64,000 nucleotides of DNA from a virus. Under the pieces are notes generated by a model. That model was not told where the DNA came from. It saw only the letters and a list, made by a program, of their open reading frames with translations, and did no database searches. Below, one piece after another: positions 2,265 to 31,849 of the stretch. Location of the stretch: the IMG/VR virus record IMGVR_UViG_3300044645_002216, positions 3,307 to 67,306 of that record. One strand, given 5' to 3'. Each line of letters starts with the position of its first letter. Within the stretch, counting starts at the first letter, position 1. The position numbers were made by a program, and so were the translations under genes.

Positions 2265-2271
2265 TACCTTA

Positions 2272-2948: not shown

Positions 2949-2971
2949 TGATCTGAAGGTTATTTTCACTT

Positions 2972-4027: not shown

Positions 4028-4032
4028 TTTAA

Positions 4033-4856: not shown

Positions 4857-4888
4857 AAAGTTCTGATCTAAAAAATCAGGAGAAAAAA

Positions 4889-5143
4889 ATGACCAAAAAA
4901 GTCGATAAAGACGAAAATTTCATGAAAAATGAGTGGGGGACTCAATTTTTGTCAAGTGAGTATGGATGGGATGAAAAAATTAAACAACAAAAGATGCTTA
5001 GGGAGATTTCAAATGATGATTTGACGCCTAAAAAACACGATTTTGTTGTTCAAAATGAAATTCATTCTAAAATTCGTAATGATGATGATTATGACGATTG
5101 GGAATATGGAACAGAACCACTTTATGAGTCAAAACCACTCTAA
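4889..5143 (+). CDS. Acidic hypothetical protein
   Basis: GGAG SD at 4879-4882; ORF track. Confidence 0.7.
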   Translation: MTKKVDKDENFMKNEWGTQFLSSEYGWDEKIKQQKMLREISNDDLTPKKHDFVVQNEIHSKIRNDDDYDDWEYGTEPLYESKPL

Positions 5144-5167
5144 ATAAGATATAATCGAATGTAAAAT

Positions 5168-5569
5168 ATGCCTCTAGAGAGGATAAGTAAAGGATTCAAA
5201 GATATTAGTATGACATTCCAGTCAAATCCTCTCAACAGAGATTTGATTGGAATAAAAAATGAGACTGCGATTTCGAGATCGGTGAAAAATCTTGTTCTTA
5301 CTTCTCAGGGAGAAAAATTTTTTGATTCTAGTTTTGGTACTAAAGTTTCAAAACTCTTATTTGAAAATATTGATGAAATGACCGCATCTATCATAAAAGA
5401 TGAAATATCATTTACATTAACTACATATGAACCTAGGATTGAACTGATTAATATATCAGTAAAACCAAATTATGATGAAAATGAATTTGCTGTTACCATA
5501 CAATATAAAATTATTGGTATTGATGTACTTCCTCAGCAATTATCATTTGCATTACAACCAACAAGATAA
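5168..5569 (+). CDS. gp25: Baseplate wedge subunit gp25
   Basis: GEKFF-x-x-x-FG and YEPRI motifs; position before gp6; CTAAATA late promoter at ~5140. Confidence 0.93.
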   Translation: MPLERISKGFKDISMTFQSNPLNRDLIGIKNETAISRSVKNLVLTSQGEKFFDSSFGTKVSKLLFENIDEMTASIIKDEISFTLTTYEPRIELINISVKPNYDENEFAVTIQYKIIGIDVLPQQLSFALQPTR

Positions 5570-13400: not shown

Positions 13401-16400
13401 AAAAAGGATAATCTTTTACCAAGTTCAAAAAAAGAGATTATATTTGATGATCAGATAAGTGGAGCTGGAGAAATTATTTTTGTTGACAGTGTATTATCAG
13501 GATCTGCTTCAATATCTGGAGTAGGAAGTACAACATTTACTTATACAATTCCTTTCGCTCCCCCAGAAAGTTCATATAATAAATCTAATGGAATTTTTGA
13601 ATATGAAAGATTTAGAGGTAAAGGAAAAATAAAGAACATTTATTTAGAGTCTGGTGGAACAAAGTATAAATCGCTACCATCTATTTCTCAAGTATTATCT
13701 GAAGACGGTAAGGGTGCATTACTATATTCCAACGGAACTGATATTGGATCTGTAAGTAATGTTGAAATTATTGATATTGGATTTTCATATCCAAAAGATT
13801 ACACTCTAAGACCAACCGCAAAACTACCAAATATTTTAAAACTTTATTCTTTATCAATATTTGATAGAATTGGTATTTCATCACAAGGAATTAATTATGT
13901 CATTCCACCTGATTTGGTTGTTATTGATAAAAAAACTAACAAACAGGTAGTTGATGTAGATTTATCTTACAACTTAGGTGACAATGAGGTTAGAATAAAC
14001 AGGAATGTATCTGGAATTTATGACACAAATCCATCTATAATACCCATAAACAATTCAAATGGTATCGGAATTAATTCTATTACCTATGATTCGACAACCA
14101 AAAATGTCACCTTATACTTAAAACCAAGTTATAGTGATCTAGAATCTTTCCCATTTGCAATTGGCGAAAGGATTTTGGTGGAATCTGTTGGCGTTACTTC
14201 CACTACATCTACAATTAGAGGATATAATTCAGAAAATTATGGATTTTCTTTATTTACAGTAACATCTACCGATCCCAATATTGGTGGATCTAATCCCTCT
14301 ATTACTTATAATTTATCTGAATATCTTTCATCGGGAGAATCGCCGGGAACTGTGAATCTTAATGGATTTGTAGTACCGGAAAGATATTTGCCTATTTTTA
14401 ATATTTCTTTGAAAAAATTAGAGTTCTTGAATGGAGAAACTGTATCATCAAAATCAGCAAGTGGTATCGTACAACTTTGGGATTCTAAAAATAATAATTT
14501 AAAAATAGCAACAAATAAAGATTTTGTTATTGGTGAGGTTATTATTGGGGAATCATCAAGAGCAAGTGGAATAATTAATGAAATTTATATATCCGACTCA
14601 TCTTACAATGTTGACTCTTATTCTATTGTGAGAAAAGGGTGGTTTAGTGAAACTGGATTCTTGAATAAAGACACACAAAGAATTCAAGATAGTGATTATT
14701 ACCAATATTTCTCATATTCACTAAAATCAGAAATTTCTTTTGATGTGTGGGAAGATAGTGTAAGCACTTTGAATCACACTGCAGGATTTAAAAAATTTAG
14801 TGATTTGGTAATTAATTCTACTTCAGGTTTTGTTGGATTATCAACATCAATAGATGCTAATAATAGCCAATTTACTGGAATTGCCGATTTATACAGCGTA
14901 AAGAGTTTACATTGTTTTGATGATTTCGATTTAGTTTCTGAAAACAATATAGTTATGAATAATAAAAGTTATTCAGATACTATAAACTTTAAATCAAAAA
15001 TACTTCAGGATTACATAGAGTCTATTGGCAATAGAGTATTAAAAATTGATGATATAAGTTCGGAATTTAATAGCAATCCAAGAACAACTAATTTTAGTGT
15101 AATTGATTCATTCGACATTAATGATTTTCGGTCTAGAAAATATGTCATTTATATAACCGATAGAACTCTACCAAATGAAAAAGAAACAATACTTGTATCT
15201 TTAATTCATGATGGATCTACCGCATATTTAAATCAGTATGCAAGTGTCACTAGTGAAGAAGATCTAGGTCATTTTGATTTCAATATTACTGGAGTAGATG
15301 CTAATTTACTATTTTATCCAAATAAAAGTGAACTTAATAATTATAACTTAGAATATCTATCGTTTGGTATTCGAGACAATGTATCTGGCATAGGAACTCT
15401 ACATCTTGGAGATGCAATAACCATAAGATCAGATACATCTGAAATTTTAGCAGGAAGTATTTCTACCACTGTTGTTGGCATTGCTTCTACCTACAGAGCA
15501 TCTAAAGTATTAGTTCAAATTGGAGCTACTGATAGATCATATTTCGAATTTAATGAGTTTACTTTACTGCATGATGATAGTAATGTTTATTTTATTGATT
15601 ATGGACAATTAACTACTGGTAATTTTAGTTCTTATTCATCTATTGGTATTGGAACGTATCATGCTTACTTAAATGGTTCTGAACTAAATCTTGACCTAAT
15701 TTTAGACAATCCGTCAACAGTAAATTACAATATAAATTCAGTTATTGTTTCTATTGCAAACACTTCCTCTAGTGGTCTTGGAACAGGAACTGTCGGTGGA
15801 ACTTTCTTGGAATCTAATCATACCTCTATTGCATCCACTTCTTCTCCCACTGGAACTCTTGTATCTGAATATGACCTGGTAAGTAACTCTTCATATTATA
15901 TTGCTGTTGTTGAGGATCTTACTAATGGAAATTCTCAAGTATCTGAAATAGTTGTAACTAATTCTAGAACAGAAAGTTATTTGAGTGAATATGGATTAGT
16001 AAAAACTAGTGAGTCTTTTAATTCTCTTGGACAGTTTGATGCAAATACTACAGGAAACACCGGAAACTTGTGGTTCACTCCAAATGCTAATATTGAATGT
16101 GAAGTTAGAATTTTTGCAATTCATACTGGATTAGATGAAACTTCTGGAATGATTGATTTTACTAATTCAGCGTTAGATTCATCTTATGGATTATATAATG
16201 GTTCATCGCTAGATGTTAAGAGAGAATTTGAACTTAAGCACAATTCAATACCAATTTTCAAACGACAGTTTGATGGATCAAGTTCGGATATTGTTGACGT
16301 GGTTAGAAATACGATTCGTATTCCGGAACACTACTTTATTACCGGTGAAGAAATAACATACTCATATCAAGGTGCGCCAATAGGAATAGAGACTACATCT

Positions 16401-19400
16401 ATCGCGGGAATAGGAACCACCGATAAACTTCCACCAAATCTTTATATTGTAAAGGTTAATGACTTGGATGTACAAGTAAGTGCTTCCGCATCTCATGCAT
16501 TATCGTCCACACCAAATGTTTTAAGTATAACATCTGTTGGAAGTGGTACTACACACCATTTCTCAGCAAAAAATCAAAATTCAAAATTATTACTGGCTCT
16601 TGACAATGCAATACAATCACCAATTGTATCTACTGCAATAACAACCAAATTGGTCAATAATATAGAGATATTTGAGAACATTTTAACTTTTGCTGGAATT
16701 ACATCTTTTTATGGTGGAGATTTAATCAAAGTTGATAATGAAATAATGAAACTTACTGGTGTAGGAATTGGAAGTACTAATTTCGTGACAGTACTACGTC
16801 CTTGGATGGGTTCAACCCTAGCAATACACACATCAGGTGCTCTTATAAGTAAAGTTGAGGGTGATTTTAATATAGTTGATAATAATATTCATTTTATCGA
16901 CCCACCTCAGGGATTAGTTCCCTTAGAAAATCCAAATAAATTTGATGAAACAGATTATTCGGGTATAACTACCAGTTCTAAATTTAGTGGAAGAGTTTTC
17001 TTAAGATCTGGTATAGAAAATTCCTCTCAGGAACCATATTCTAGAAATTACATATTCAACGATATTTCCAATCAATTTAATGGAGTAACTTCTGATTTTA
17101 GATTAACTTCAAATAATAGTAATGTAACAGGTGTTTCTACTAGCAATTCTATCATTTTAATCAATGGAGTATTTCAGATTCCATCGAGACCTGGTGCGGT
17201 AAGTATTGTTGGTGGTTATGATTTAGAAGAATCTAGTGGTATTAGCACTATTTCTTTCGTTGGAACAACCAGTTCTATTGGATCAGACATCAATATCTCC
17301 AATATACCAAGAGGGGGTATTATTGTATCTGTTGGTTCTACTCGCGGATTTGGATATCAACCTCTAGTTTCTGCTGGAGGAACTGCTGTAGTATCGGTTG
17401 CTGGAACAATTCAGTCTGTAAGTATTGCTAATAGTGGTTCTGGATATAGAAGTGGATATCAGGTAGTGAATGTTGGTGTCGGTACTTCTAGTCTGTACAG
17501 TCCAAACATTGAATTTATTGGAACTGCTACCGTCAGCGGAGGTCATGTTGTAAGTGTTGCGATTACAAATCCGGGTGTAGGATATACTGCATCAAATCCA
17601 CCATATGTATTTTTTGATTCTCCACTTTCTTATACTAATATTCCTCTAGTTCATAGTTCTTCTTCACTTACGGGGTTTGGAACTGGTGCTCGTGTTGACA
17701 TTATCGTTGGTCAGGGATCAAGTGTAATTAGTTTTGAACTTAAGAATTTGGGATATGGATATGGACAAAGAGAGATATTAACTATTCCTATCAGTGGAAA
17801 TATAGGTATTCCAACAAATACTAATCTAATTTTCAAAGAATTTTCAATTATTGTTGAACAAACATATAATGATAGTTTCTCGGGATGGGCTATTGGTGAT
17901 TTGCAATTATTGGATCCTTTAGATTCTTTATTTGATGGGGAAAGAACAGAGTTTCCAATTTTAATCAATGGAAATCAAACAACAATTAGGAAGAAGGTTG
18001 GATCTAATATTGATATTGAATCTACTCTCTTAATATTCATAAATGATGTATTGCAAGTACCCGGAGAAGGATATACTTTTGCTGGGGGAAGCGTAATCAC
18101 ATTCACTGAACCTCCAAGTCAAGGTGACACTTCAAAATTAGTTTTCTATAGAGGAACAGGTGATGTTGATACTGTTCTTGTGGATATTTTAGAAACAATA
18201 AAACCTGGAGATACTCTTCAGATAAATTCGGATGATGAATCATATAAGCAAGATGAGAGATCAGTTTCTGAAATTATTTCTTCAGATGCTGTTAGAACTA
18301 ACATGTATTCTAGAAGTGGAATATCAAATGATTCAAATCTACTGAGACCTGTTACTTGGTGTAAGCAAGAATTTGACATGGTGATGAACGATCAACAAGT
18401 GACAAAAGATAGAATTCAATATGAACCATATATCTATCCTATTAGTAATATTATTGAACATGTGGGAACTTCATCTACGGTGATATATGTTGAAAGTGCT
18501 AAGACATTTTTTGATAGTGTGGATGAATATGTACAAGATGGTTCCACAGAAAAACCACAAAAATCAATTAAAATTGTAGAGCAAGAAACATTGGTTCCAG
18601 CATTTGCTACCGCTATAGTTTCTTCTGCAGGTACTATAGGATCAATATTAATTTCAAATTCTGGTATTGGATATACGTCATCAAATGTTCCTTCAGTTAT
18701 AATTGGAAATACTATTGGCGTTGCTCTCACACAAAGAGCAACTGCAACAGCAGTGGTTTCTCCATTTGGAACAATATCAAATATTATTGTGAATTATCCT
18801 GGAGTTGGATATACTTCTTCAAATCCACCTCAAGTTTTAATTGAACTCCCAGAACCAAAAGTGGAAGTTATTCGTGAGGTTAATTATAGTGGAGATTTTG
18901 GAATCATAGTTGGTTATGGAATTTCAACTATGTCAGGTTCTGATAAGAACATTTTTGATTTATACGTTCCACAAAATTCATTCTTACGTGACACCAACAT
19001 AGTTGGAACAGCAATTACATTGAGCCAAATTCAAGTTGGAGACTTTTTTGTCGTACAAAACTCAAATGTAGGATCTGCATCTACTAATTTCTTCACATAC
19101 AGAAATGATAACTCAATTATTGGACTTTCTACTCAATATGTTGATGGTATATATCAAGTCAATGCAGTAGAAACGATTTATAGAAGTGTTGCTGGGGTTG
19201 GAAGTACATATGTGAAGAGAATTTTTGCAATTGTAGAACCGACAACGGGAATAAGCACTATTGGATTAGGAGCATCTACAATATTCTTCGATTCAACATA
19301 TTACACTTGGGATCACTTAGGAATTACTACTTATTCTGGCGGAACTATAAGTACTTCAAATTACTTTGGTGACTATAGTTGGGGTAAAATTTCTGGTTTA

Positions 19401-19508
19401 ACTAGATTCAATTCTCAATCTTTTACTTCTAATGGATTTAATGGAATTAGTACTTCACCTAGCGTAATTAGATTGAATCCACTAAAGTATGAAAATTACA
19501 CTAACTGA
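7482..19508 (+). CDS. gp7: Giant baseplate wedge initiator gp7-like protein (4008 aa) with a YHYH-like domain and many beta-repeat modules
   Basis: N-terminal QLPDYV...FLSQYY, KDFYSSKGT-x-x-SFEILFRALYG; QDSDYYQYFSY and NH-x-AGFKKFS motifs; HSPIIGWAYDGNPIYGP...DLDESNGRFCVTPEYP; lies between gp6 and gp8. Confidence 0.85.
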   Translation: MTESRIKISSIVENQLPDYVKEEFPLVTEFLSQYYQAIENQGSTLDILQNIDHYIKVDNLTNLIDSTQTTSNVSLFDGTINVESTFGFPDSYGLIKIDNEIITYKSKTSTSFDECVRGFVGIEEYFNNDQLKFSDTNVESHVEDSTVVNLSVLFLKEFFNKIKIQVTPGFENRALSSQINEGLFIKQSKDFYSSKGTAHSFEILFRALYGKDVEVILPRDFLIQPSDAQYRITKDLVVEAIEGNPTDLINLTLYQDSVYDIPASRGTVSNVEKIIRSNKEYYVISLDFGYGNNVNDTGLALGNFTVHSKTKNIIDIVPSSDTITVDSTLGFPSSGNLTVDLENGTQLLINYTSKSSTQFYGCTGINQNVPKNSELNLDAFAYGYTDVEQTKIAKVRITGVLSNIDLDSPTKYYDRGDLIKIVTIGKQSNDFRANKWLFNISSTHNIKSIIELDALNFRYNIDLYDRHFFYIGDSVTIISPQGQPASEIRGVVSAVKNSTSITISLEQKLNSLVPFQIKKNIVNVSSKNDLSLNKYVANVQNTYIDSTNSVYVTSLSLPYYANNSLDIRDKKITFSGTFSGDSLTVPNHKFYTGDKIVYNPDQNENKLDLGAGKYFVRRIDSSTIKLSRSVADLFNNRYLNVSGTVVDNVFYYEPFTFENLSPKTVLPQNLIRQIPIPSITNTRFITPTGFTGIFVNGVELLNYKSNDYVYYGPITSIDILSRGGNYDVINPPIVQISDLVGSGATAHCTVSGSLVRIDVIDGGVNYLQNPEIIITGGNGSNAKAIPILESYDYSVSFSSNQSAGYVNLIDNTIGFSSFHKLNNGDELIYQTNEQQGIGGITTNSSYFASVVDANTIKLHTKLTDAFDRTNPVNLSLPYGTGVHTLKSKFKRRKIQSINVINPGTNYRNRKLFVGSIGISTANNSININNHNFNNKDIVTYQSTGEVISGLDTSKYYYVEKIDDNNFRLFDQYTLDDKNQIDFYYETNQPVNLTSVGSGLHIFRDEPIRIQIIGPVGVTTFANQNFDAELQPIFRGRIESVFLEDGGSNYGTEEIFNYNRQPNITLNSGTGAEIRPVILNGSIVNVFVVNPGIGYNSPPDIFIESPTGSSAILVPIVNEGLLVEVKVVSGGIGYEQSTTTMIVSSAGQEAKFSANIKSWQVNLVERNIISGEITNDDGIIAESLNNKFELEYSHGYAPRSLRRSILAEKFTDEGIIYIPDLNIQNGSETLSDVHSPIIGWAYDGNPIYGPYGYSTASGGAAKLLKSGYSISLQDNRPSLDLYPEGFFIEDYQYTDNGDLDESNGRFCVTPEYPTGTYAYFATISENIETSGTFVNYRRPIFPYAIGDYYHSNIGVVNFSPVLNQDDFDLNQTNLLRNTTPYYLNSDNSFYEYLEDPNKIKEQNSKVINVSSGSVTSIDIIDPGENYNVGDQILFDNAGTGGRGAKAYVSGIQGKNIVGISITTLQVDNVELIGNVGISSSQLNLKNRDFLTITGKIPNQFSTTQRIEIVNSTLILSSGIGSAFYTGIVTYMSVYPPINAIENDLFYLGNEVVKILNIDKLNSRVRILRNQKGTTGISSYSAGYALTESPTKFVYNSSGIGATFFDNREFYFNPIESVGLGTTSGVGIGLTLYFSNPGAGGTSIFVPTRTIYIPDHQIPTGTELLYRSNDGSPLSISTDGVSSYNLSNNSIVYSAKISEDLIGISTVLVSLGNTGTFVGVGSTNIGTLLYFTSIGSGVNHSLKSNPTKTVKADLSKNTVNVSTAETHGLFERENIKITALPQLSTSVYVSYSDYNRRLCINKLSFSSPNVDIVSKTITINDHKLPTGQSVVYREITPVGGLVDSKIYYVIEYGKNSIKLAESLYDISINKVVNITSTGSGTISAINPQIVVTKNNTINFDLSDSSLAFKNNAIDYTAFDFNIYEDALLNKKFDKTPNSSTFNVIKNGRIGIDTTASISLIFNNELPNKLYYRLEPKKDNLLPSSKKEIIFDDQISGAGEIIFVDSVLSGSASISGVGSTTFTYTIPFAPPESSYNKSNGIFEYERFRGKGKIKNIYLESGGTKYKSLPSISQVLSEDGKGALLYSNGTDIGSVSNVEIIDIGFSYPKDYTLRPTAKLPNILKLYSLSIFDRIGISSQGINYVIPPDLVVIDKKTNKQVVDVDLSYNLGDNEVRINRNVSGIYDTNPSIIPINNSNGIGINSITYDSTTKNVTLYLKPSYSDLESFPFAIGERILVESVGVTSTTSTIRGYNSENYGFSLFTVTSTDPNIGGSNPSITYNLSEYLSSGESPGTVNLNGFVVPERYLPIFNISLKKLEFLNGETVSSKSASGIVQLWDSKNNNLKIATNKDFVIGEVIIGESSRASGIINEIYISDSSYNVDSYSIVRKGWFSETGFLNKDTQRIQDSDYYQYFSYSLKSEISFDVWEDSVSTLNHTAGFKKFSDLVINSTSGFVGLSTSIDANNSQFTGIADLYSVKSLHCFDDFDLVSENNIVMNNKSYSDTINFKSKILQDYIESIGNRVLKIDDISSEFNSNPRTTNFSVIDSFDINDFRSRKYVIYITDRTLPNEKETILVSLIHDGSTAYLNQYASVTSEEDLGHFDFNITGVDANLLFYPNKSELNNYNLEYLSFGIRDNVSGIGTLHLGDAITIRSDTSEILAGSISTTVVGIASTYRASKVLVQIGATDRSYFEFNEFTLLHDDSNVYFIDYGQLTTGNFSSYSSIGIGTYHAYLNGSELNLDLILDNPSTVNYNINSVIVSIANTSSSGLGTGTVGGTFLESNHTSIASTSSPTGTLVSEYDLVSNSSYYIAVVEDLTNGNSQVSEIVVTNSRTESYLSEYGLVKTSESFNSLGQFDANTTGNTGNLWFTPNANIECEVRIFAIHTGLDETSGMIDFTNSALDSSYGLYNGSSLDVKREFELKHNSIPIFKRQFDGSSSDIVDVVRNTIRIPEHYFITGEEITYSYQGAPIGIETTSIAGIGTTDKLPPNLYIVKVNDLDVQVSASASHALSSTPNVLSITSVGSGTTHHFSAKNQNSKLLLALDNAIQSPIVSTAITTKLVNNIEIFENILTFAGITSFYGGDLIKVDNEIMKLTGVGIGSTNFVTVLRPWMGSTLAIHTSGALISKVEGDFNIVDNNIHFIDPPQGLVPLENPNKFDETDYSGITTSSKFSGRVFLRSGIENSSQEPYSRNYIFNDISNQFNGVTSDFRLTSNNSNVTGVSTSNSIILINGVFQIPSRPGAVSIVGGYDLEESSGISTISFVGTTSSIGSDINISNIPRGGIIVSVGSTRGFGYQPLVSAGGTAVVSVAGTIQSVSIANSGSGYRSGYQVVNVGVGTSSLYSPNIEFIGTATVSGGHVVSVAITNPGVGYTASNPPYVFFDSPLSYTNIPLVHSSSSLTGFGTGARVDIIVGQGSSVISFELKNLGYGYGQREILTIPISGNIGIPTNTNLIFKEFSIIVEQTYNDSFSGWAIGDLQLLDPLDSLFDGERTEFPILINGNQTTIRKKVGSNIDIESTLLIFINDVLQVPGEGYTFAGGSVITFTEPPSQGDTSKLVFYRGTGDVDTVLVDILETIKPGDTLQINSDDESYKQDERSVSEIISSDAVRTNMYSRSGISNDSNLLRPVTWCKQEFDMVMNDQQVTKDRIQYEPYIYPISNIIEHVGTSSTVIYVESAKTFFDSVDEYVQDGSTEKPQKSIKIVEQETLVPAFATAIVSSAGTIGSILISNSGIGYTSSNVPSVIIGNTIGVALTQRATATAVVSPFGTISNIIVNYPGVGYTSSNPPQVLIELPEPKVEVIREVNYSGDFGIIVGYGISTMSGSDKNIFDLYVPQNSFLRDTNIVGTAITLSQIQVGDFFVVQNSNVGSASTNFFTYRNDNSIIGLSTQYVDGIYQVNAVETIYRSVAGVGSTYVKRIFAIVEPTTGISTIGLGASTIFFDSTYYTWDHLGITTYSGGTISTSNYFGDYSWGKISGLTRFNSQSFTSNGFNGISTSPSVIRLNPLKYENYTN

Positions 19509-22276: not shown

Positions 22277-25200
22277 ATGCCTCAAGAAACTAATCTTAAC
22301 GTATCTCCTTATTTTGACGATTTTGATGCGAATAAGAACTTTTATAAGGTTCTTTTTAAACCCGGACAACCAGTACAGGCAAGAGAACTAACTGGTCTTC
22401 AGTCCATACTTCAAAATCAAATTGAAACCTTTGGAAATCATATTTTTAAAGAGGGTTCATTAGTAATTCCTGGAGGCATAGATTATAACGGCCAACTAGC
22501 GGGAGTAATAATTAATCCCACTTTTAATGGTCTCACTGTTGATAGTTATATTGATAATTTATTATACAAAGATATTGTGGGTGAAAGGTCAGGTACTAGG
22601 GCAAGAGTCGTACATATTTTAAAAGCAGGTGAAGATAGTAATCCATCCACTGTTTTGTATTGCACTTTTCAATCTGGATCAACTGCATTCCAAAGTGGAG
22701 AAAATTTACTTACTGAGTTTGTAGTTTCTCCTGGATTTTCATCTTTATCTCAGATAAACGCGGGGCAGGCTTTTTGTACTACGTCAAATGAAGTCACAAA
22801 TGTAATTGGTTCTGCTCTTACGGTAAATGAGGGAGTATACTTCATTCGCGGATATTTCATAACTGTTCCAACACAAGAAATTATCTTAGGGTGGAATACA
22901 TCTACACCATCTTATAGTGCTGGATTTGAAATATTTGAAGAATTAATCACTGCAGATGATGATCCTACGTTATATGATAATGCAAGAGGATTTTCTAATT
23001 TTGCGGCTCCCGGTGCGGATAGATTAAGAATTACAACTAATCTAACAAAAAGACCGATTACTCGCAATGACATAAATTCAGTATCTGATAAAAATTACAT
23101 TGAAATTTTTAGAATTCTTGGTGGAGAACTTAGAAAACTCAATAGAAATGCTCAGTATGATGAAATTGCAAAAGAGTTTGCCAGAAGAACTTACGATGAA
23201 TCTGGAAACTATTATGTAAAACCATTTGTAGTTGAAGTAAGAGAATCTTTAAATGATTTAAAGGGTAATGATGGAATTTATTCTCCAGGAGAGACTACCT
23301 CCCAGGGACTTAGGACAAATGAACAACTAGGAGTTTATAAAATATCTCCGGGAAAGGCATATGTTCAAGGTTATGAAGTAGAAAGTCTTGGAACTCAACT
23401 TCTAGACTTTACAAAACCTAGAACTACGAAAGATCTCAAAAATCAGTTCATTAACTTTTCAACTGGTTCATCATTTACTTTAAATAGAGTTTATGGTGCT
23501 CCTTCTCTAGAAGTAGATGGATCTTATATAGTGAGTCTTAGGGATTCTAGAGTTGGTACATCTCAAATTACTGCTCCAGGAAAAGAAATTGGATTAGCAA
23601 GGGTTTATGACTTTGCATTGGAATCAGGAATTTATAATGAAAGTGTAAAGAATCTCAATGAATGGGATATTTCATTATACGATATTCAGATGTATAATGA
23701 ATTTGTTTTAAATGAAAGTATTACATTACAAATTCCTACCCACATTAAAGGAAAAGCAAGTGGTGCAACTGCATTTTTAAGATACTCTGCAACTAATTCT
23801 GGAATTATTACTGCATATAATATTGACGGAAACTTCCAGGTAGGAGAAAGATTAATTTTTGATGATAACGAAACTAATACCAGAGTTTCTACTGCGATAA
23901 CTGAGTATGGAGTATCTGATGCAAGTTCTTTATATGGAATTATTGGCACCGGGTATACATTCACTGCAGATATTAAACCTACTATTGTTTCGGATTTTGG
24001 TCCGGTTTCTATTAGTACTGCCTCAGCTGGCGTTAGCACAGTTAGAACAAGTGACCCTAATGTGTTCTTTAATATATCATTAAAGAACAATGATATTGTA
24101 ACATACAATGTTCCGGGAATTTCTACATTTACATATTCAAGAGTTGTATCAGTATCAGATAAAGCATTTGCTATCACTGGTATTACTACTGTTCCTGGAG
24201 TATGTGAAGGAGCTTTACCTTCTTCTGGAGTTAATGTAAATAATATCTTTTTATTAAAATCACCTCTCAAAGGTTCATTAAGCAATAGTTTATTTACACC
24301 ATTGCCAGTTGAAAACATAGCAACAGTTGATTTAACAAACTCTATTTTGTTTGTAAGAAAAGAGTTTGACGTTCAGATTTCTGCAAATGCAGTTACAATT
24401 TCTCCAACATTATTAGAATCAAATGAAGCTTTTGTTCCATTTGACGAAGAAGATTATGTATTAGTTAGAAAAGATGGTCAATTAGAATCACTTTCTGCAG
24501 ATAAATTTTCATTCAATAATAATAACAGAGGACTGTCTATATTTGGCCTCGGAAGTAATACTGATGCAAGGCTTATAGCAACTATTCAGAGATCTGAAGT
24601 TAAAGCAAAACAAAAAAATAAAGTTAAGATTTCAACTCTTACTATCAATAAATCATCAAACCCAGGTTCTGGTATTGGATCTACTACATTAAATGATGGA
24701 TTAGTTTATGGTAATTATCCATATGGAACAAGAGTTCAGGATTCTGAAATTTGCTTGAATTATCCAGATGTATCTAAAATATATGAAGTTTTTGAATCTA
24801 GTAATACATCAGATCCAGTTTTACCATCACTTGTATTAACCGATATTAATAGTGCAAATGGAACAGTTGACGATTTAATTATCGGAGAAGAAATTTATGG
24901 ACTTACTAGTCTTGCTGTGGCAAAATACATAGGTAAAGTAAATTCCAATAAGATTAATTATGTTTTAATTTCTGAAAAATCATTTTTATCTGGGGAAACT
25001 ATTACTTCATTGGAGTCTGGAGTATCTGCAGACATTAGTTCTGTGGAATCAAATTCCAATAGTATCTCCGATGATTATACTTTTTCGGAGGGTTTAAAAA
25101 ATTACATTTACGATTATTCTGTTCTTTCTCTGAATAAAGATAAGACTCCTCCATCAAAAAAACTAACGATCGTTTTTGAAAGAAGTGAGTATTCGGAATC

Positions 25201-26311
25201 AGATACTGGAGATCTTACTACCATAGATTCTTATGGACAATATAACTGGTGTGAAATTTTATTCACCAATGATATTAACAATGGTGATGTGATTGATTTG
25301 CGTCCTAGAGTTGATAATTATACTGTCCTCGAAAATGTTCGATCACCATTAGAATTTTTAGGTAGAACTTTTAATGCAACTGGAAACTCTTCAAAGAATA
25401 TAATTGCATCTGATACTTCCTTAGTTTCTAACTACTCATATTACTTAGGAAGAATTGATAAAATTTATCTATCTAAGGATAATACAATTCAGGTAAGACA
25501 AGGAGAACCATCAGAAAATCCACTACCTCCAGAATCAATTGAAAATGCATTAGAAGTTGCTACTATTATCATTCCCCCATATCAGTGCAACGCCCAAAGT
25601 GCTTCAGTTATTCTTACTGAAAATAAAAGATATCAAATGAAAGATATCGCGAGACTTGAAAATAGAATTAAAAACCTAGAATATTATACTACACTATCAC
25701 TACTAGAAAAAGATACTTCCACATTGACTATTAAAGATGCTAATGGCATTGATAGATTTAAGAGTGGTTTGTTTGTAGATAATTTTAAAACTACAACTTT
25801 CCAAATTAAAAAGACCGAAGTCAAAAATAGTATTGACATGAAGAGAGGTGAATTAAGACCATCTCCATACACAACTGAAGTTGATTTATTACTAGGTGAT
25901 AATACTTTACTAAATAGTGAAGATACATTTTTTACCTTTTATGATGCAAAGTACGCTAATGATTTAGTTGGAATTGGCGTAACACGCAGTGGACTTATTC
26001 CTGGTAGTGCAGGTAAAGGAGTAATTACTCTCAATTATCAAGAAGTTGTTGAAATATCACAACCATTTGCAACAAGAATTGAAAATGTAACTCCTTATTT
26101 TGTGACAGTTTACGAAGGAATTATTGATTTGAATCCATCATCAGATTTTTGGGTAGATAGAACCCAGTTAGCTCCTATAACAGTAGAGGGAATCACTACA
26201 GAAATGACTTCAACTACATTACAACTTACAAAAGAACAAATAGACACTCAAGGCGGATGGAGTCCCATTGTATGGAATTCTTGGTCCGATCAGTGGACTG
26301 GTAGTTTATAA
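22277..26311 (+). CDS. VrlC-like/DUF4815 virion structural protein, N-terminal half
   Basis: NLNVSPYFDDF...QARELT, APGADR, ARRTYDESGNY, NKRYQMKDI-x-x-LE-x-RI-x-NLEYYT, RFKSGLFVDNF; ends at WNSWSDQWTGSL followed by TAA TAA. Confidence 0.85.
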   Translation: MPQETNLNVSPYFDDFDANKNFYKVLFKPGQPVQARELTGLQSILQNQIETFGNHIFKEGSLVIPGGIDYNGQLAGVIINPTFNGLTVDSYIDNLLYKDIVGERSGTRARVVHILKAGEDSNPSTVLYCTFQSGSTAFQSGENLLTEFVVSPGFSSLSQINAGQAFCTTSNEVTNVIGSALTVNEGVYFIRGYFITVPTQEIILGWNTSTPSYSAGFEIFEELITADDDPTLYDNARGFSNFAAPGADRLRITTNLTKRPITRNDINSVSDKNYIEIFRILGGELRKLNRNAQYDEIAKEFARRTYDESGNYYVKPFVVEVRESLNDLKGNDGIYSPGETTSQGLRTNEQLGVYKISPGKAYVQGYEVESLGTQLLDFTKPRTTKDLKNQFINFSTGSSFTLNRVYGAPSLEVDGSYIVSLRDSRVGTSQITAPGKEIGLARVYDFALESGIYNESVKNLNEWDISLYDIQMYNEFVLNESITLQIPTHIKGKASGATAFLRYSATNSGIITAYNIDGNFQVGERLIFDDNETNTRVSTAITEYGVSDASSLYGIIGTGYTFTADIKPTIVSDFGPVSISTASAGVSTVRTSDPNVFFNISLKNNDIVTYNVPGISTFTYSRVVSVSDKAFAITGITTVPGVCEGALPSSGVNVNNIFLLKSPLKGSLSNSLFTPLPVENIATVDLTNSILFVRKEFDVQISANAVTISPTLLESNEAFVPFDEEDYVLVRKDGQLESLSADKFSFNNNNRGLSIFGLGSNTDARLIATIQRSEVKAKQKNKVKISTLTINKSSNPGSGIGSTTLNDGLVYGNYPYGTRVQDSEICLNYPDVSKIYEVFESSNTSDPVLPSLVLTDINSANGTVDDLIIGEEIYGLTSLAVAKYIGKVNSNKINYVLISEKSFLSGETITSLESGVSADISSVESNSNSISDDYTFSEGLKNYIYDYSVLSLNKDKTPPSKKLTIVFERSEYSESDTGDLTTIDSYGQYNWCEILFTNDINNGDVIDLRPRVDNYTVLENVRSPLEFLGRTFNATGNSSKNIIASDTSLVSNYSYYLGRIDKIYLSKDNTIQVRQGEPSENPLPPESIENALEVATIIIPPYQCNAQSASVILTENKRYQMKDIARLENRIKNLEYYTTLSLLEKDTSTLTIKDANGIDRFKSGLFVDNFKTTTFQIKKTEVKNSIDMKRGELRPSPYTTEVDLLLGDNTLLNSEDTFFTFYDAKYANDLVGIGVTRSGLIPGSAGKGVITLNYQEVVEISQPFATRIENVTPYFVTVYEGIIDLNPSSDFWVDRTQLAPITVEGITTEMTSTTLQLTKEQIDTQGGWSPIVWNSWSDQWTGSL

Positions 26312-26327
26312 TAAGGAGACATAGAAA

Positions 26328-29300
26328 ATGGCAGTACGTATTAATAGACCTTCAACTGGCGCAACTCCATCAAGTTCATCAAGATCTGTTCCAACATCCC
26401 CTAGAGAAGTTCCATCCAGGTCTTCTCAAGATAGAGCTCGCCCCACTTTAACAAATCTCGGTAGTGCTAGTATTAGAGATTCAGTTACTACACTTAGTGG
26501 CTCAAGCCCTACTAGGACGAGAACTGCAGTAATTGAAAGAGGAAATAATATCATTACTACCACCCGTCTACCGGGCAGCGAAGATCTTAGTCCAAAACGT
26601 GTTGATATTCGTAGACGACCACAAGAACCATCAAGACCACCACAAGAAGATCCAATTATTATTGCTGCTCCACCCATAACAGGTTGTCCGGATCCAAATA
26701 CATTAATTTTATTATCTGATGGGTCACAGAAAAGAGCCGGAGATCTTCAAGTTGGTGATGTAGTAAGAACTCAACATGAGGATACTTTAGAATGGGGAGA
26801 GCATGAGGTTACTTACGTTCATATTAAAGACTCAGAAAAACTAGTTCTCACTTTCGACCATACTGAGTTTGTTTGTTCTACTTCCCACAAGTTCTATGTA
26901 GAAGGTAAAGGTTGGACTGAAGTCAACCAAATGGAAATTGGTGACTTTGTAATTGGTTTAGATCAATCACATGAGTTACTGGAAGTAAGAGAAGGAACTT
27001 ATGGTGAAGTAGTCGTTATTCAGATTGAAGACGCCCACACTTATATTTCTGAAGGATTATTATCTCACAATAAAACTATCCTTCCACCAGAAACATTTCC
27101 GCCACAACCAACACCAGAACCAGGTTTCACACCAATTCCACCATCTGGCGGTGGATTCTTTGTACCAGGAACACCGACAACTGTTACGACAACTACTACG
27201 GGTACAACAACAAGAACTGGAACTGCAACAAGAATTAATACTACTTCTACTACTAGGAGTTTAGGTCAAAATAGACTTGTAGGTCTAGATGTATTACCAT
27301 ACATGAGATCTAGAAACGTTGAGTTTATTGCTAAAAAATTAAAACCAAATACCCTAGTATATCCATTTTTCGACAAACAAAATTTTTATGATTACGTAGT
27401 ACCAAAAATTCTTGAAATTGAAATGATTTCAGGAACTTTTGTTACCGGAGAAACTATTTCTGGAGTTCTCATTCAAGACGAAGTTGTAGACCTACTTTCT
27501 ACATTAACTATAAGATCAATTCAATTTCGTCTTGCTGTCTATAATCATAAGTATGGACCTTATAATAACCCAACAGACGTATACTCATCAAGTCCATATA
27601 ATATAACAGACCAACTTCAACCATATTCTCCAACATCAACTACTCTTAACGTAGATACAACAAGTCTTTCCGATTTATCTCTTGGAACTTATGGGGGTAA
27701 TGTTTTTATTGGAATGACCTTGGTTGGTAGGGATAGCGGAGCCACAGCACGAGTTAGAGAAAGGAGACTTGTATCAGATAATGTTGGTACAGTTATTGGT
27801 TCTTTCTTTATTCCAAATCCAAATGGAGCAGGAAATCCAAGATTTACTACTGGAAATAAAACTTTCAGATTAACTGATAATCCTACAAACGGAACAATCG
27901 CAGGTACCTTGTATACCTATGCAAATGCAAATTTCTTTGCTGATGGATTAATTACTCAAGGGCAAGAAACAGTCTTATCAATCCGTACTGTTGAAACTCA
28001 GACCGCTATTATAAATGAAACCGTACCAATTACAAATACAACAGTAACAACTGTTCCCGGCACTCCAGTATTCGTACCATCTCCTACACCAACACCTCCC
28101 GCTCCACAACCACCACCACCGCCACCACCGGTGGTGACAGATCCAGGACCAGGACCAGTTATAAATCCAGATCCTTCGACACCAACGCCGCCACCACCCC
28201 CACCACCACCAGCAGCGGAACCACAAGCGTTTCGTTTATTTATTGGAGGTACTAATTCGCCAGACTTCTCCGGCCTGGGTGAAGGTCTCACACTCCCAAC
28301 ATTTATTACTTTTTTTGATTCCAATGGAGATGGAGTATTTCAAGCAAATGAAATACAAGTAGTAACTAATATACTTGGACCTGAACCAAGAGGATTTCAA
28401 TCTATACTTCCCCCAGGTGCTAGAGCTAGGACTATATCATTAGGTTCTCCCGGTGAAGCACCGGAAGAAATCATTAATAGTAAGTTCAGAGCTATTGCAT
28501 CCCAGGCAGGAAGACAAGTAAATAGAGAAAATTTTATCGTACTTCCTCAAACGGAAGAAGTTAGGCAACTAGCATTAGATGCTTTGAATCAAGCCCTGAG
28601 GAATCAAGCACTTCGTGATAGGCAACCGATTGGCGCGCCCCAGGTGAGCAGACCAGATATATTTACAAACCCAGTTGGTTTTGCTCCAGGAGAACAACCT
28701 AGGACTGGCGAAAGCGCAATTTTTGCAGGCACACCTCTCGGTAGACCAACACGAGTTAGTCCATCATTACCCGGACGTTCTCCTGCATCACAACCACCGG
28801 CAGTTGTTCCTCCAACTTCCCCAACACCAATTTCTGGAAGGCCAGTAAGACCCGGTACAACGGTCCCAACAGTAGTTGCAACAACTCCTGGTATACTTGC
28901 GACAGGAAACGGACCTTCATCACTTCCACCTAGAGTACCGTCGGCACCAACTCCTGCAGTACAACCTGTAGCAGTACCGACACAACAACCACAACGAAGA
29001 GCATTGGTTTCTGCTCCAGCACCAAGTCCAATTAATCCAACTACTGCAAACTTACTTAATTCTTCTCAACAAGTTGCCAGAGAATCCAGATTATCATCTG
29101 GACCTAACTTGGCAAGAGTCAGATCAGGTTATACTGGAACAGACCCACTCGCACAAACGTTTAAAATTGGATCCGATGAGGATCAAATTGGAAGATATGC
29201 TACTTCTATAGACGTTTTCTTCTATTCTAAGGCACCTGAACTTCCTGTTTATGTTGAATTGAGGTCAGTTGAACTGGGAATACCTACACAAAAAATCTAT

Positions 29301-31622
29301 CCATTCAGTAAAGTAGAAATATTACCAAAAGATATTAATATTTCTCAAGATGGAAGACTAGCAACAAGAGTTAAGTTCCAAGCACCAGTGTACCTTGAAG
29401 GTAACAAAGAACATGCATTAGTTCTTCTTTCTGATTCTAGTGACTATAGTGTATTTGTCTCAAGACTAGGTGAAGTTGATATTACAACAGCTTTGCTACC
29501 CGAATCTCAGCAAAGATTAGTTACAACTCAACCTACGCTTGGTTCTCTCTTCAAATCGCAGAATGCTTCTACTTGGACTCCTTCCCAATATGAAGATCTT
29601 AAGTTCAATCTTTATGCTGCTGTTTTTGAATCTACAGGAACTGTAAGTTTCTTCAATCCGGAATTGAATAGAAGCAATGATCAAATTGCAATTCTACGCA
29701 ACAATGCATTGGATATTGAATCCAGAAGAGTTAGAGTTGGTTTAGGTACTACCTTATCTTCATCCACAATTTCAGACCTAACTGAAGGAAGTTTAATTAG
29801 ACAGAGAGATACGAATGCAATTGGTAATTTTGCTTATGTGACTGGTATTGCCACAGGTACTTTAAGTATTCCAAACTCTGGTATTGGATATACTCCTTCT
29901 ACGGGCGTTCAGTCGTATTCTAATGTCTCACTTACATCAGTTAGTGGATTTGGTAGGGGAGCAACAGCAAATATTACGGTAACCAATGGATCTATTACAT
30001 CTGCAGGCATTTCCTCTGGTGGAACTGGATATCAAATTGGAGAAATATTAACTGCCGATGCAATTGGTATTACGTCAATTGGTAGAAATCTGAGACTTTC
30101 GGTACAGCAACTTTCTGGATTTAATGAACTAGTTGTTGATAACGTACAGGGTCAATTTGAAGTTGGAGTTGCAAAATCTATTCAATACTTTAGTGTGGTT
30201 CCTGGAATTGGTTATACAGATCTAAACGGAGGCAGCGTATTCGCAAATGATATTGTAACAGAAAGAGATGGATTGTATATTAACGTAAAGCATAGAAATC
30301 ATGGAATGCACGCCCTAACAAACGTTGTTAGTATTTCTAAGGCAATTTCTGATATTGATTCAATCAAACTCACTAATGATGTTGAAAGAGACTTTACCGG
30401 TAACCTTGCAGTCACTGGACTTACTACTGCATTTAACACTTTTGAAAATGTAGGTATTTCTTCTACAAATCCAGGTTACCTCGTAGTCAATTCTGAGATT
30501 ATTTCTTATACTGGTTTGAATGGAAATGTTTTCACTGGTATCACTAGAGGTGTTGATTCGACATTACGAATTAGACATCCAGCAAACTCTTTTGTTTATA
30601 AGTATGAACTTGCTGGAGTTTCTCTAAGAAGGATTAATACTACTCACGCACTTCAGGATGTAACTGATAGTACTAAAGAAAATACTTTAGATTCTTATTA
30701 CATCAAGATCGATCCGTCTGCCAATGGAACCGATAGAAGTACGGGGGTAAGTTTCCCCAAACTTTATTTGAATTCAACAAAGTCTACTGGTGGTCCAATT
30801 ATAGAGGCAACTCAAAATATTCCATATGATATCGCTCAACCAATCGTCCAAACTTTCACTCCACCTCAGACAACCATTACTGCCTCAATGAGGACGATTA
30901 GTGGGACAAGTATAGATGGTTCTGAAGAATCATTCTTAGATAGAGGTACTCGGGCTATCAAGTTGAATCAAGATAATTTCTTCGAAAATCCAAGAATTAT
31001 AGCATCTAGAGTAAATGAAAGACTTTTCTTAGATAATATAATTGCAGGAAACAAGTCATTAGAAATGACTTTAAATCTATCAACAGTAAATCAATATCTA
31101 TCTCCAGTGGTTGATCTTGATAGAGTTGGTATGATTTTAGTTTCAAACAGAGTCAATGAACCAGTAATAGACTATGTTGGAGATGAAAGAGTATCTCTCC
31201 TAGAAACTGATCCTAATGCATTTGTATATGCTTCTAAACCAATTGAACTTGAAGTTCCTGCAACATCAATTAAAATTATTCTCTCGGCACACTTGAATAT
31301 TTTCAATGATGTAAGAGCAATGTTTGCTATCATGAAAGATGCCAACGAAACACCAATTTATTACCCATTCCCAGGAAATGGAAACATCAGTGGTGATGGA
31401 AGAACTATTAATATTTCAAATAATGACGGAAGACCAGATCTTCCACTTGCAGTAACTTCCCAACTTGGATTCTTAAGTGAAGAACTTACATTTACTGATT
31501 ATGAATTTACAATTAATAATCTTGAATCATTTAAATACTTCAGTATAAAACTTATAGGTTCTTCAACTTCACAAACATATCCTCCAAGATTTAGGGATTT
31601 GAGAATTATTGCTCTGGCGTAA
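26328..31622 (+). CDS. VrlC-like/DUF4815 virion protein, C-terminal half, with an R/S/P-rich leader, a Hint domain and a Pro-rich insert
   Basis: Own SD (AAGGAG at 26313-26318); PYMRSRNVEF, DPLAQTF, GSLFKSQNASTWTPSQYEDLKF and terminal PPRFRDLRIIALA motifs. Confidence 0.85.
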   Translation: MAVRINRPSTGATPSSSSRSVPTSPREVPSRSSQDRARPTLTNLGSASIRDSVTTLSGSSPTRTRTAVIERGNNIITTTRLPGSEDLSPKRVDIRRRPQEPSRPPQEDPIIIAAPPITGCPDPNTLILLSDGSQKRAGDLQVGDVVRTQHEDTLEWGEHEVTYVHIKDSEKLVLTFDHTEFVCSTSHKFYVEGKGWTEVNQMEIGDFVIGLDQSHELLEVREGTYGEVVVIQIEDAHTYISEGLLSHNKTILPPETFPPQPTPEPGFTPIPPSGGGFFVPGTPTTVTTTTTGTTTRTGTATRINTTSTTRSLGQNRLVGLDVLPYMRSRNVEFIAKKLKPNTLVYPFFDKQNFYDYVVPKILEIEMISGTFVTGETISGVLIQDEVVDLLSTLTIRSIQFRLAVYNHKYGPYNNPTDVYSSSPYNITDQLQPYSPTSTTLNVDTTSLSDLSLGTYGGNVFIGMTLVGRDSGATARVRERRLVSDNVGTVIGSFFIPNPNGAGNPRFTTGNKTFRLTDNPTNGTIAGTLYTYANANFFADGLITQGQETVLSIRTVETQTAIINETVPITNTTVTTVPGTPVFVPSPTPTPPAPQPPPPPPPVVTDPGPGPVINPDPSTPTPPPPPPPPAAEPQAFRLFIGGTNSPDFSGLGEGLTLPTFITFFDSNGDGVFQANEIQVVTNILGPEPRGFQSILPPGARARTISLGSPGEAPEEIINSKFRAIASQAGRQVNRENFIVLPQTEEVRQLALDALNQALRNQALRDRQPIGAPQVSRPDIFTNPVGFAPGEQPRTGESAIFAGTPLGRPTRVSPSLPGRSPASQPPAVVPPTSPTPISGRPVRPGTTVPTVVATTPGILATGNGPSSLPPRVPSAPTPAVQPVAVPTQQPQRRALVSAPAPSPINPTTANLLNSSQQVARESRLSSGPNLARVRSGYTGTDPLAQTFKIGSDEDQIGRYATSIDVFFYSKAPELPVYVELRSVELGIPTQKIYPFSKVEILPKDINISQDGRLATRVKFQAPVYLEGNKEHALVLLSDSSDYSVFVSRLGEVDITTALLPESQQRLVTTQPTLGSLFKSQNASTWTPSQYEDLKFNLYAAVFESTGTVSFFNPELNRSNDQIAILRNNALDIESRRVRVGLGTTLSSSTISDLTEGSLIRQRDTNAIGNFAYVTGIATGTLSIPNSGIGYTPSTGVQSYSNVSLTSVSGFGRGATANITVTNGSITSAGISSGGTGYQIGEILTADAIGITSIGRNLRLSVQQLSGFNELVVDNVQGQFEVGVAKSIQYFSVVPGIGYTDLNGGSVFANDIVTERDGLYINVKHRNHGMHALTNVVSISKAISDIDSIKLTNDVERDFTGNLAVTGLTTAFNTFENVGISSTNPGYLVVNSEIISYTGLNGNVFTGITRGVDSTLRIRHPANSFVYKYELAGVSLRRINTTHALQDVTDSTKENTLDSYYIKIDPSANGTDRSTGVSFPKLYLNSTKSTGGPIIEATQNIPYDIAQPIVQTFTPPQTTITASMRTISGTSIDGSEESFLDRGTRAIKLNQDNFFENPRIIASRVNERLFLDNIIAGNKSLEMTLNLSTVNQYLSPVVDLDRVGMILVSNRVNEPVIDYVGDERVSLLETDPNAFVYASKPIELEVPATSIKIILSAHLNIFNDVRAMFAIMKDANETPIYYPFPGNGNISGDGRTINISNNDGRPDLPLAVTSQLGFLSEELTFTDYEFTINNLESFKYFSIKLIGSSTSQTYPPRFRDLRIIALA
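26685..27071 (+). other. Hint (intein-like/BIL-type) autoprocessing domain, 129 aa, no endonuclease
   Basis: C120-PDPNTLILLSDGSQKRAGDLQVGDVV (block A), CSTSHKFY (block B His), VVVIQIEDAHTYISEGLLSH-N248 (blocks F/G); +1 residue is Lys. Confidence 0.88.
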
Positions 31623-31624: not shown

Positions 31625-31849
31625 ATGGAAAAAATACAAGTAAAAGGACATCCAAGTCTCTTCAGAGATAAATCCTCCAACGCAATATTAAATACAGATA
31701 TGAATGCTTATCAAAATTATATGGAATCTAAGAGAATAAAGGAGGATGAATCTAAACGAATTAATAATATTGAAAGTGATTTAAATTCTCTTAAAGGTGA
31801 TATTGATGAAATTAAAAATCTACTGAGGAGTTTGGTTAATGGATCCTGA
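31625..31849 (+). CDS. Small conserved coiled-coil protein
   Basis: V-x-GH-x-x-L-x-RD-x-x-S-x-AI-x-N motif with a C-terminal heptad repeat; usual position before gp13. Confidence 0.8.
   Translation: MEKIQVKGHPSLFRDKSSNAILNTDMNAYQNYMESKRIKEDESKRINNIESDLNSLKGDIDEIKNLLRSLVNGS

Follow-up and report, generated by a model that had tools for sequence, protein, structure and literature searches.

The 64,000-nucleotide stretch of viral DNA analysed here (IMG/VR record IMGVR_UViG_3300044645_002216, positions 3,307 to 67,306; hereafter the window) raises the question of why the gene for a giant baseplate protein of the VrlC/DUF4815 type is broken into two open reading frames (ORFs), and of what a Hint domain, preceded by a disordered leader, does at the start of the second. 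We favour, with moderate confidence, the reading that the Hint excises itself together with the leader, as would be expected from the type-A bacterial intein-like (BIL) domains characterised so far; mature ORF2 protein would then begin at Lys249. The elements of the locus are the following (window positions, strand in brackets, basis of each call at the end).

22277..26311 (+): ORF1, N-terminal module of the DUF4815/VrlC-type giant baseplate protein (PF16075, phrog_358, PDB 9euf_0)
26309..26327 (+): junction, consisting of TAA TAA, AAGGAG at 26313-26318 and a 9-nt spacer with an in-frame TAG (sequence)
26328..31622 (+): ORF2, comprising leader, Hint, linker, and the middle and C-terminal modules of the same giant protein (phrog_358, PDB chain)
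26328..26612 (+): leader, ORF2 amino acids (aa) 1-95, basic, S/R/P/T-rich and poorly conserved (isoelectric point (pI), identity, ratio of nonsynonymous to synonymous substitution rates (dN/dS))
26613..26684 (+): conserved pre-Hint segment, aa 96-119 (RRRPQEPSRPPQEDP...PPITG), with Gly119 as its last residue (position -1) (aa identity 60-75%)
26685..27071 (+): predicted Hint domain, 129 aa, Cys120 to Asn248 (invariant columns, AlphaFold2, Foldseek, dN/dS)
26685-87, 26886-88 and 27063-71 (+): Hint residues, respectively Cys120, the His of block-B Ser184-x-x-His187, and AHTY...Ser-His-Asn248
27072..27074 (+): +1 residue, Lys249, not Cys/Ser/Thr
27075..27296 (+): Pro/Thr-rich linker, ending at PYMRSRN
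27297-27317 (+): PYMRSRN, ORF2 aa 324-330

The split gene and its junction

ORF1 (1344 aa) has the C-terminus ...WNSWSDQWTGSL (WTGSL) and stops at TAA (26309-11), which is directly followed by a second TAA (26312-14), and ORF2 (1764 aa) begins at an ATG 16 nt past the ORF1 stop, in the +1 frame relative to ORF1. An AAGGAG Shine-Dalgarno (SD) sequence at 26313-26318 lies upstream of this ATG, and a TAG in frame with ORF2 (26322-24) stands just 5' of it. The layout described in the first-pass annotation, which a model had made from the sequence alone, holds throughout: the TAA TAA stop and, 16 nt on, a new ATG in another frame with its own AAGGAG are followed by a 119-aa R/S/P-rich leader, a whole 129-aa Hint (C120-N248), a Pro/Thr linker and PYMRSRN, in that order.

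Judged by their profile and structure matches, ORF1 and ORF2 each encode one half of a giant VrlC/DUF4815 baseplate protein, which belongs to an uncultured lake-water phage of T4-like (Kyanoviridae-like) type. ORF1 matched DUF4815 (PF16075, E 6.6e-59), and both ORFs matched phrog_358 (2056 positions) and PDB 9euf_0. On phrog_358, ORF1 covers positions 1-1149, ORF2 aa 284-333 cover 1164-1212 and ORF2 aa 934-1764 cover 1417-2055; the stops, SD, leader, Hint and linker are therefore an insertion, because the profile has only about 15 positions there. On 9euf_0, a 1152-aa 'DUF4815 domain-containing protein', the two ORFs match collinearly, ORF1 aa 179-364 to residues 72-243 (E 1.2e-27) and ORF2 aa ~908-1125 to residues 761-967 (E 2.6e-22). 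The 9euf_0 chain belongs to entries of a Staphylococcus phage 812 baseplate study (PMC13433997) and, going by which entries hold it, would be the putative 'tripod' protein. Compared with this phage 812 chain (PDB 9EUF and others), the window protein is split into two ORFs, is longer (3108 aa in total versus 1152 aa) and carries a Hint. VrlC, named as a core protein of cyano- and pelagimyophages in PMC7029224, likewise matches ORF1 plus ORF2 collinearly and has the same synteny after the gp8-like wedge gene. In the cultured relatives it is made in one piece: Synechococcus phage Sf-FS3 has a single fused coding sequence (CDS) of 2510 aa, and Pelagibacter phages HTVC008M and Mosig have a single CDS each (6006 and 6138 nt), in all three without a Hint and following a gp8-like gene. 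The statement in the first-pass annotation that homologues carry WNSW and PYMRSR on a single polypeptide is borne out by these three CDSs.

The split is confirmed as genuine and inherited, not an assembly artefact. Two independent IMG/VR contigs (L002 and L003) show the same split with the same conserved TAAGGAG; the last residues of ORF1 and its distance to the ORF2 ATG are WTGSL* and 15 nt in L002, and WTGSFA* and 12 nt in L003 (junctions compared: window 26309-26330, L002 1528-1548, L003 2890-2907). Furthermore, 26311-26328 is bridged with 0 differences by Logan contigs of three runs, each under a different study code (X3, 26236-26767; X5, 26211-26770; X4, 26290-26646). A coverage check had been proposed in case the stop and frame change were an assembly error, and the contigs of three other runs, which are contigs and not raw reads, share the junction, as do L002 and L003. 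The listed sequencing runs with this DNA are lake-water, freshwater or unspecified metagenomes.

In L002 (TAA TAA) and L003 (single TAA) the two ORFs share a frame, and in the window, which has one extra base (26324) relative to these two, ORF2 is offset by +1; a variant contig of run X4 also lacks that base. With L002 and L003 in frame and the window 1 nt off, the comparison points to a nonsense-type fission and rules out a conserved recoding signal, and the fission looks, in the aligned junctions, like a recent nonsense event within a once-continuous linker, in which the TAA became part of the TAAGGAG SD. Recoding by read-through or frameshift was rejected, as the frame relation of ORF1 and ORF2 is not conserved across the window, L002 and L003. 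It is extremely improbable that the split is an artefact, or is bypassed by frameshift or read-through to give one ORF1-ORF2 polypeptide with the Hint as an internal element. Rare read-through of the one in-frame TAA of L003 or the two of L002 would indeed yield a fused chain in those relatives; against this, the junction is identical in the contigs of three further runs and kept in two other viral contigs, a frame of +1 in the window and 0 in L002 and L003 leaves no single recoding mechanism conserved, a strong conserved SD and ATG precede ORF2, and splits at these linkers are common in the DUF4815 family. In addition, no tRNA genes were found within the 64-kb window, so that it holds no suppressor.

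A Hint family with type-A BIL features

We are confident, on the strength of its modelled fold, that ORF2 aa 120-248 form a genuine, complete Hint domain. The AlphaFold2 model, based on a 14-row alignment (predicted local distance difference test (pLDDT) 86.6, predicted template modelling score (pTM) 0.77), has the all-beta horseshoe-like fold of the HINT superfamily, and the sequence has its N-terminal nucleophile and block-B (T/S)xxH. Foldseek against the PDB ranked Tetrahymena BIL2 first (6y75/6tmm, E 5e-11, template modelling (TM) score 0.75-0.80, identity 21-22%), followed by the Ssp DnaB mini-intein, gp41-1, the C. thermocellum BIL 2lwy and Hedgehog 1at0; there were 66 PDB matches at E<=0.001, and the best 50 of these 66 were all inteins, BILs or Hedgehog. 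A phmmer search of solved structures returned BIL2 (6y75/6tmm, E 4e-6), 2lwy (E 3e-5) and, weakly, gp41-1, the 2lwy match being the sole link to the original A-type BIL sequences. In the 14-row alignment, Cys1, the block-B His (His187, with Ser at -3) and the terminal Ser-His-Asn are among the columns that show no variation. The Pfam families PT-HINT, Hint and Hom_end_hint all scored under their thresholds on the window Hint; at E<=0.01, PT-HINT matched 10 of the 14 aligned family members (best E 1.5e-8) and Intein_splicing also 10 of 14. A Pfam AXH match overlapping the Hint (20.7-26 bits, cut-off 33) is taken as spurious. The Hint domain proposed in the first-pass annotation was thus recovered by AlphaFold2 with Foldseek and by the phmmer match to BIL2, with PT-HINT sub-threshold on the window copy.

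The Hint would be classed by its residues and location with the type-A BILs and not with the canonical inteins. Section 8 of PMC4031507 defines type-A BILs by a C-terminal His-Asn and the absence of a +1 nucleophile, and reports that cleavage products dominate in the characterised ones, with splicing via aminolysis possible; section 5 of PMC7765530 locates them in hypervariable regions of non-conserved proteins. The window Hint ends in Ser-His-Asn248 and is followed by Lys249, and the family lies between Pro-rich flanks at varied sites in DUF4815 and unrelated proteins. The features shared with type-A BILs (Amitai 2003 and Dassa 2004, as given in the sections of PMC4031507 and PMC7765530 named above) are the Hint fold, the N-terminal Cys, the block-B His, the C-terminal His-Asn, the lack of a +1 Cys/Ser/Thr and of a homing endonuclease, and a place in variable linker regions of non-conserved proteins. 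Unlike type-A BILs, the phage Hints appear from their sequences to have virion or baseplate proteins as hosts and a nearly invariant +1 Lys, and they occur as N-terminal (with a leader), tandem and extreme C-terminal copies. BIL2 (Tetrahymena thermophila BUBL1 polyubiquitin-like locus, 6Y75/6TMM), the best sequence and best structural match, has the same layout of Cys1, block-B His and His-Asn, and its own reaction uses a lysine amine; it is flanked by ubiquitin-like domains as a conjugation platform, whereas the window Hint has a disordered leader on one side and a baseplate protein on the other. Pretoxin HINT (PF07591) is the best Hint-type Pfam family, and autoproteolytic release of the downstream part is the role proposed for it in polymorphic toxins (PMC3482391); the window Hint stays below its gathering threshold, is followed by DUF4815-family structural sequence instead of a toxin domain and has no secretion context. 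The first-pass annotation had called this a BIL/pretoxin-like Hint and not a canonical intein, and this call agrees with the presence of Cys1, block-B His187 and the terminal His-Asn and with Lys at +1; the chemistry that it gave for such domains (cleavage dominant, ligation by aminolysis possible) is that given in section 8 of PMC4031507.

A canonical class-1 intein would have Cys, Ser or Thr in place of Lys249 and would sit in a conserved site, not in a variable Pro/Thr/basic linker of about 15 phrog_358 positions. Mini- and split inteins (Ssp DnaB, gp41-1) have the fold and blocks A, B, F and G in common with the window Hint, and split inteins likewise go with a two-piece gene; unlike in these, the +1 residue is Lys, the location is a variable linker instead of a conserved active site, and the Hint lies whole in ORF2. 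A split intein or fractured gene was accordingly rejected, as ORF1 ends in the family sequence WTGSL without any intein fragment and the complete 129-aa Hint is within ORF2; trans-splicing of ORF1 and ORF2 is impossible because ORF1 has no such fragment.

The proteins in which inteins and BILs are chiefly known are enzymes of replication and, in bacteria, secreted proteins or toxins. The Hint described here represents a large subfamily, with the signature Cys1...Ser-His-Asn|Lys, that occurs at the start, in the middle or at the end of structural proteins of uncultured aquatic phages. A HMMER scan of 1.84 billion representatives identified 2,393 proteins at E<=0.001, of which 410 reached <=1e-10 and 49 reached <=1e-30. 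From these, a sample of 179 proteins was taken (32 from an earlier search and the best 150 of the 2,393, overlapping), in which the Hint hidden Markov model gave 208 domain matches, 162 of them full length (in 151 proteins). Across these full-length Hints (roughly 40-90% identity), Cys1 and the terminal His-Asn were each kept in 161 of 162, and the +1 residue was Lys in 132, Ile in 9, Leu in 6, Ala in 5, Ser in 3, Val, Asn and Arg in 2 each and Tyr in 1, with no Cys or Thr among the 162. The -1 residue was Gly (40), Ser (39) or Thr (34) in 113 of 162, and Pro was frequent at +3 and +5. Each of the five viral records searched, one of them judged 100% complete, contained one Hint copy.

The placement of the domain varies widely. 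In 39 of the 151 proteins an N-terminal leader of up to 130 aa precedes the Hint (starts as given by gene calls, unverified), as in L004, where a 741-aa ORF consists of a 34-aa leader, the Hint, Lys and a Q/G-rich protein. In L005 and L006 the Hints are internal, between acidic/Pro or Pro-rich stretches, and in 13 proteins only 1-5 residues follow the His-Asn, as in L007, whose 1925-aa structural ORF (619-6396) ends ...SHN-TK-stop, with the next structural ORF 25 nt later. This C-terminal, Hedgehog-like placement was also seen in L008-L013 and in G001, a 167,696-bp record judged 100% complete. Two or more Hints in tandem, some 7 aa apart, were found in P0012-14, P0016, P0034, P0036-42, P0084, P0118, P0129 and P0156; such tandems are unusual for selfish inteins. 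In a search of 50,697 deposited phage records, matches at E<=1e-3 numbered 25, with identity <=34% (21 terminase inteins, three Ruminococcus phage hypotheticals and one unannotated). Open-access papers and bioRxiv yielded no Hint or BIL in VrlC/DUF4815 or other phage baseplate proteins, and the phage literature on the 'Hint domain' concerns ordinary terminase or ribonucleotide reductase inteins. By these searches the family is large, metagenome-only and undescribed.

Fate of the leader and the Hint

The leader (aa 1-119) has a pI of 11.7 and contains 19 Ser, 17 Arg, 16 Pro and 14 Thr; no in-frame ATG, GTG or TTG lies within it, and the Hint can therefore be translated only with the leader attached. 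In a comparison of the window, L002 and L003, dN/dS was 0.11-0.17 for the Hint, 0.10 for the C-terminal domain, 0.18-0.29 for the middle domain and 0.09-0.15 for the end of ORF1; for leader aa 1-95 it was 0.44-0.83 (aa identity to L002 41%, to L003 19%), and for the Pro-rich ORF2 aa 641-930 it was 0.77-1.08. The Hint, including its catalytic residues, is under purifying selection, and the leader evolves almost freely. Within the split lineage only the last ~20 leader residues are common (RPxPQEPSxPPQE...), the parts upstream being wholly different among P0005, P0006, P0007, P0009, P0010 and P0015, and leader length ranges from 51 to 119 aa in close relatives. A role for the leader as a conserved functional peptide is weakened by this pattern, as all but these last residues are replaced or near-neutral. 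The site-1 linker of fused homologues, that is, the linker at which the window gene is split, is basic and variable; in Sf-FS3 it is a K/R-rich stretch of 95 aa with the T-rich motif found after the Hint in the window, and the T-rich part of the window's post-Hint linker (TTTTTGTTTRTGT) corresponds to it. Since the leader is compositionally like the Sf-FS3 linker, it looks like a remnant of the ancestral basic linker. The variant contig of run X4 skips or replaces 26412-26617 in the leader (204 nt, 68 codons, in frame), and the middle part of the leader in L002 is likewise non-homologous, which marks the leader as a polymorphic hot spot. Between L002 and L003, the synonymous rate (dS) of the Hint is 0.35 and that of the flanking middle and C-terminal domains 0.9-1.0; this lower value suggests that recombination exchanged the Hint region between lineages.

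Self-excision of the Hint with its leader would proceed as follows. ORF2 is initiated independently, from the SD formed with the TAA of the ORF1 stop; after translation, Cys120 would attack the Gly119-Cys120 bond (N-S acyl shift) to form a thioester, and cyclisation of Asn248 would cut the Asn248-Lys249 bond. By analogy with characterised type-A BILs, cleavage would dominate, and Hint and disposable leader would be removed to leave a mature middle and C-terminal protein starting at Lys249. The Hint would thus be a mobile, linker-resident, self-excising module flanked by Pro-rich spacers. Selection would keep it active because an uncleaved Hint at the N-terminus would probably hinder assembly, and for the same reason purifying selection on the Hint is to be expected even for a purely selfish passenger. 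The N-terminal position behind a leader (L004) and the extreme C-terminal position (L007) would make sense only for self-removal.

Several observations weigh against self-excision. Purifying selection is expected equally for cleavage, splicing or conjugation; Cys1 is kept in the forms with an N-terminal leader, where it would be needless if only C-terminal cleavage mattered, which hints at use of the thioester; the near-invariant +1 Lys is unexplained by simple cleavage; with 21.3-23.9 bits, the window Hint falls short of the PT-HINT (PF07591) gathering cut-off of 27.7; and no close family member was found among isolates in the 50,697 deposited phage records.

The nearly invariant +1 Lys and the Cys1 kept beside short variable leaders keep alive a transfer of the thioester to a lysine amine. 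That the Hint splices, with the leader ligated to Lys249 through the new alpha-amine or the Lys epsilon-amine and retained as a flexible extension, seems to us rather unlikely. The +1 Lys of 132 of the 162 family Hints and the retention of Cys1 even in forms whose N-extein is a short leader of variable sequence would fit it, as would the closest solved relative, BIL2, which forms an isopeptide bond between a Lys epsilon-NH2 and a C-terminus (PMC8616854, section 2.4); type-A BILs are capable of splicing by aminolysis (PMC4031507, section 8), and in the fused giants P0021-23 and P0026 splicing of the internal copies would keep the protein whole. Set against this are the dominance of cleavage products in the characterised type-A BILs (same section), the near-neutral leader, which gives no visible value in keeping it, the C-terminal copies (13 proteins, among them that of L007), whose 1-5 residues after His-Asn leave nothing worthwhile to ligate, and the tolerance of the DUF4815 family for two or three separate chains.

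A more general form of the idea, in which the +1 Lys is the acyl acceptor and a thioester-activated upstream chain is passed to the Lys amine to give an isopeptide-branched 'splice' or a virion cross-link, is unlikely; if true, ATP-free protein conjugation, so far reported only for Tetrahymena BIL2, would occur on a large scale in phage assembly. Resolution of the Gly119 thioester in trans, whereby the leader (or an upstream protein) is joined to a Lys or the N-terminus of another baseplate protein as a virion cross-link, we hold to be highly improbable. BIL2 does conjugate its N-extein to other substrates (PMC8616854, section 2.4), and Hints are found at the extreme C-terminus of giant structural proteins with the next structural gene 25 nt later (L007), but in the window the poorly conserved leader is an unlikely cargo, no partner is identifiable, and the ORF1 C-terminus is not activatable, since ORF1 does not precede the Hint on one and the same polypeptide.

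The sub-threshold Pfam scores of the window copy would also suit a Hint that is catalytically dead or unused and kept on ORF2 as a structural or decorative domain. We consider this quite improbable given the catalytic positions kept in 161 of the 162 domains in spite of roughly 40-90% identity, the dN/dS of 0.11-0.17, and the Cys1 and His-Asn exactly at the borders, which a non-catalytic domain would not need.

If active, Hints of this family would provide a protease-free, built-in way to trim or divide giant virion proteins, and mass spectrometry and structural annotation of such phages would then have to allow for chains with a terminus at a Hint border. The domain is compact (129 aa), has a +1 residue that is not a nucleophile and tolerates many flanks; it could, moreover, be a candidate self-cleaving tag.

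Hints and breaks at the linkers of VrlC genes

The same Hint family also occurs at a second linker (site 2), before the DPLAQ C-terminal domain, in the fused 2779-2935-aa proteins P0021-23 and P0026. In L014 (10001-19501) a basic, K/R/P-rich tail of 329 aa leads from the site-2 Hint to a stop, and the C-terminal domain is a separate 834-aa ORF, starting MANSLIDPLAQTF, 294 nt downstream; in the distant DUF4815 N-half proteins P0117, P0122 and P0089 a P-rich linker, a Hint and a tail come next. No fused protein with a site-1 Hint was found among the 3088-5000-aa proteins searched, which is weak evidence. In a quick Hint tree (131 columns, Shimodaira-Hasegawa-like approximate likelihood ratio support only, for coarse placement), the 15 site-1 Hints formed one clade (support 93) beside Hints of the unrelated proteins P0043-45, and site-2 Hints fell in at least two other places; from this distribution the module appears to move between sites and hosts. 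In the window, site 2 corresponds to ORF2 aa 641-930 (28248-29117), between the middle and C-terminal domains, where aa identity among close relatives is 33-75% and where other phages have a Hint or a gene split.

Of at least 598 DUF4815 loci, the 80 with the greatest similarity to ORF1 were kept; only L026 among these has a Hint, and L026 is the L003 contig. Fission was surveyed in 89 sources (88 loci and the window; L026 duplicates L003, and the seven loci L014-L020 were drawn with P0020 and are biased). At site 1, 64 were fused, 4 split and 21 unreadable, so that 64 of the 68 readable genes are fused; the splits are those of the window, L002 and L026, which form one lineage, and of L036, without a Hint. 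At site 2, 50 were fused, 20 split and 19 unreadable, and 14 of the 20 splits lack a Hint, the other 6 all coming from the set drawn with P0020. In L036 (9995-17974) the giant protein is encoded as three ORFs (N, middle and C) with ordinary spacers and no Hint; these intergenic spacers are 26-64 nt long and A/T-rich where read (the first). The alignment of homologues for fused or split state and Hint presence that the first-pass annotation had called for thus gives site 1 as fused in 64 of 68, with the cultured relatives fused and Hint-free.

The notion that Hint cleavage 'licenses' gene fission is unsupported as a rule, given the 14 site-2 splits and the three-way L036 split without Hints; since linkers are split without them, split and Hint are not mechanistically tied. 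A causal link between the two is likewise weakened by these cases, and by the Hints found elsewhere, in unrelated proteins. The core VrlC baseplate gene is documented here as modular: it breaks at linkers with or without a Hint, and is one, two or three ORFs depending on the phage.

From the annotation of its neighbours, the split gene is set in a T4-like baseplate, neck and packaging module. Upstream to downstream, this module has a gp6-like wedge protein, a 4008-aa wedge protein, a phrog_438 wedge subunit (the homologue of this ORF in Sf-FS3 is annotated as a Gp8-domain protein) and ORF1/ORF2, followed by connector proteins (head-tail adaptor, head closure), a tail-sheath stabiliser and the large terminase subunit (TerL). 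The 4008-aa ORF (7482-19508), a second giant protein, aligns with positions 5-3364 of the 4179 in phrog_2885 ('baseplate wedge subunit'). Directly after ORF2, a 74-aa ORF (31625-31849) is syntenic with the ~70-aa ORF that follows VrlC in HTVC008M, Mosig and Sf-FS3.

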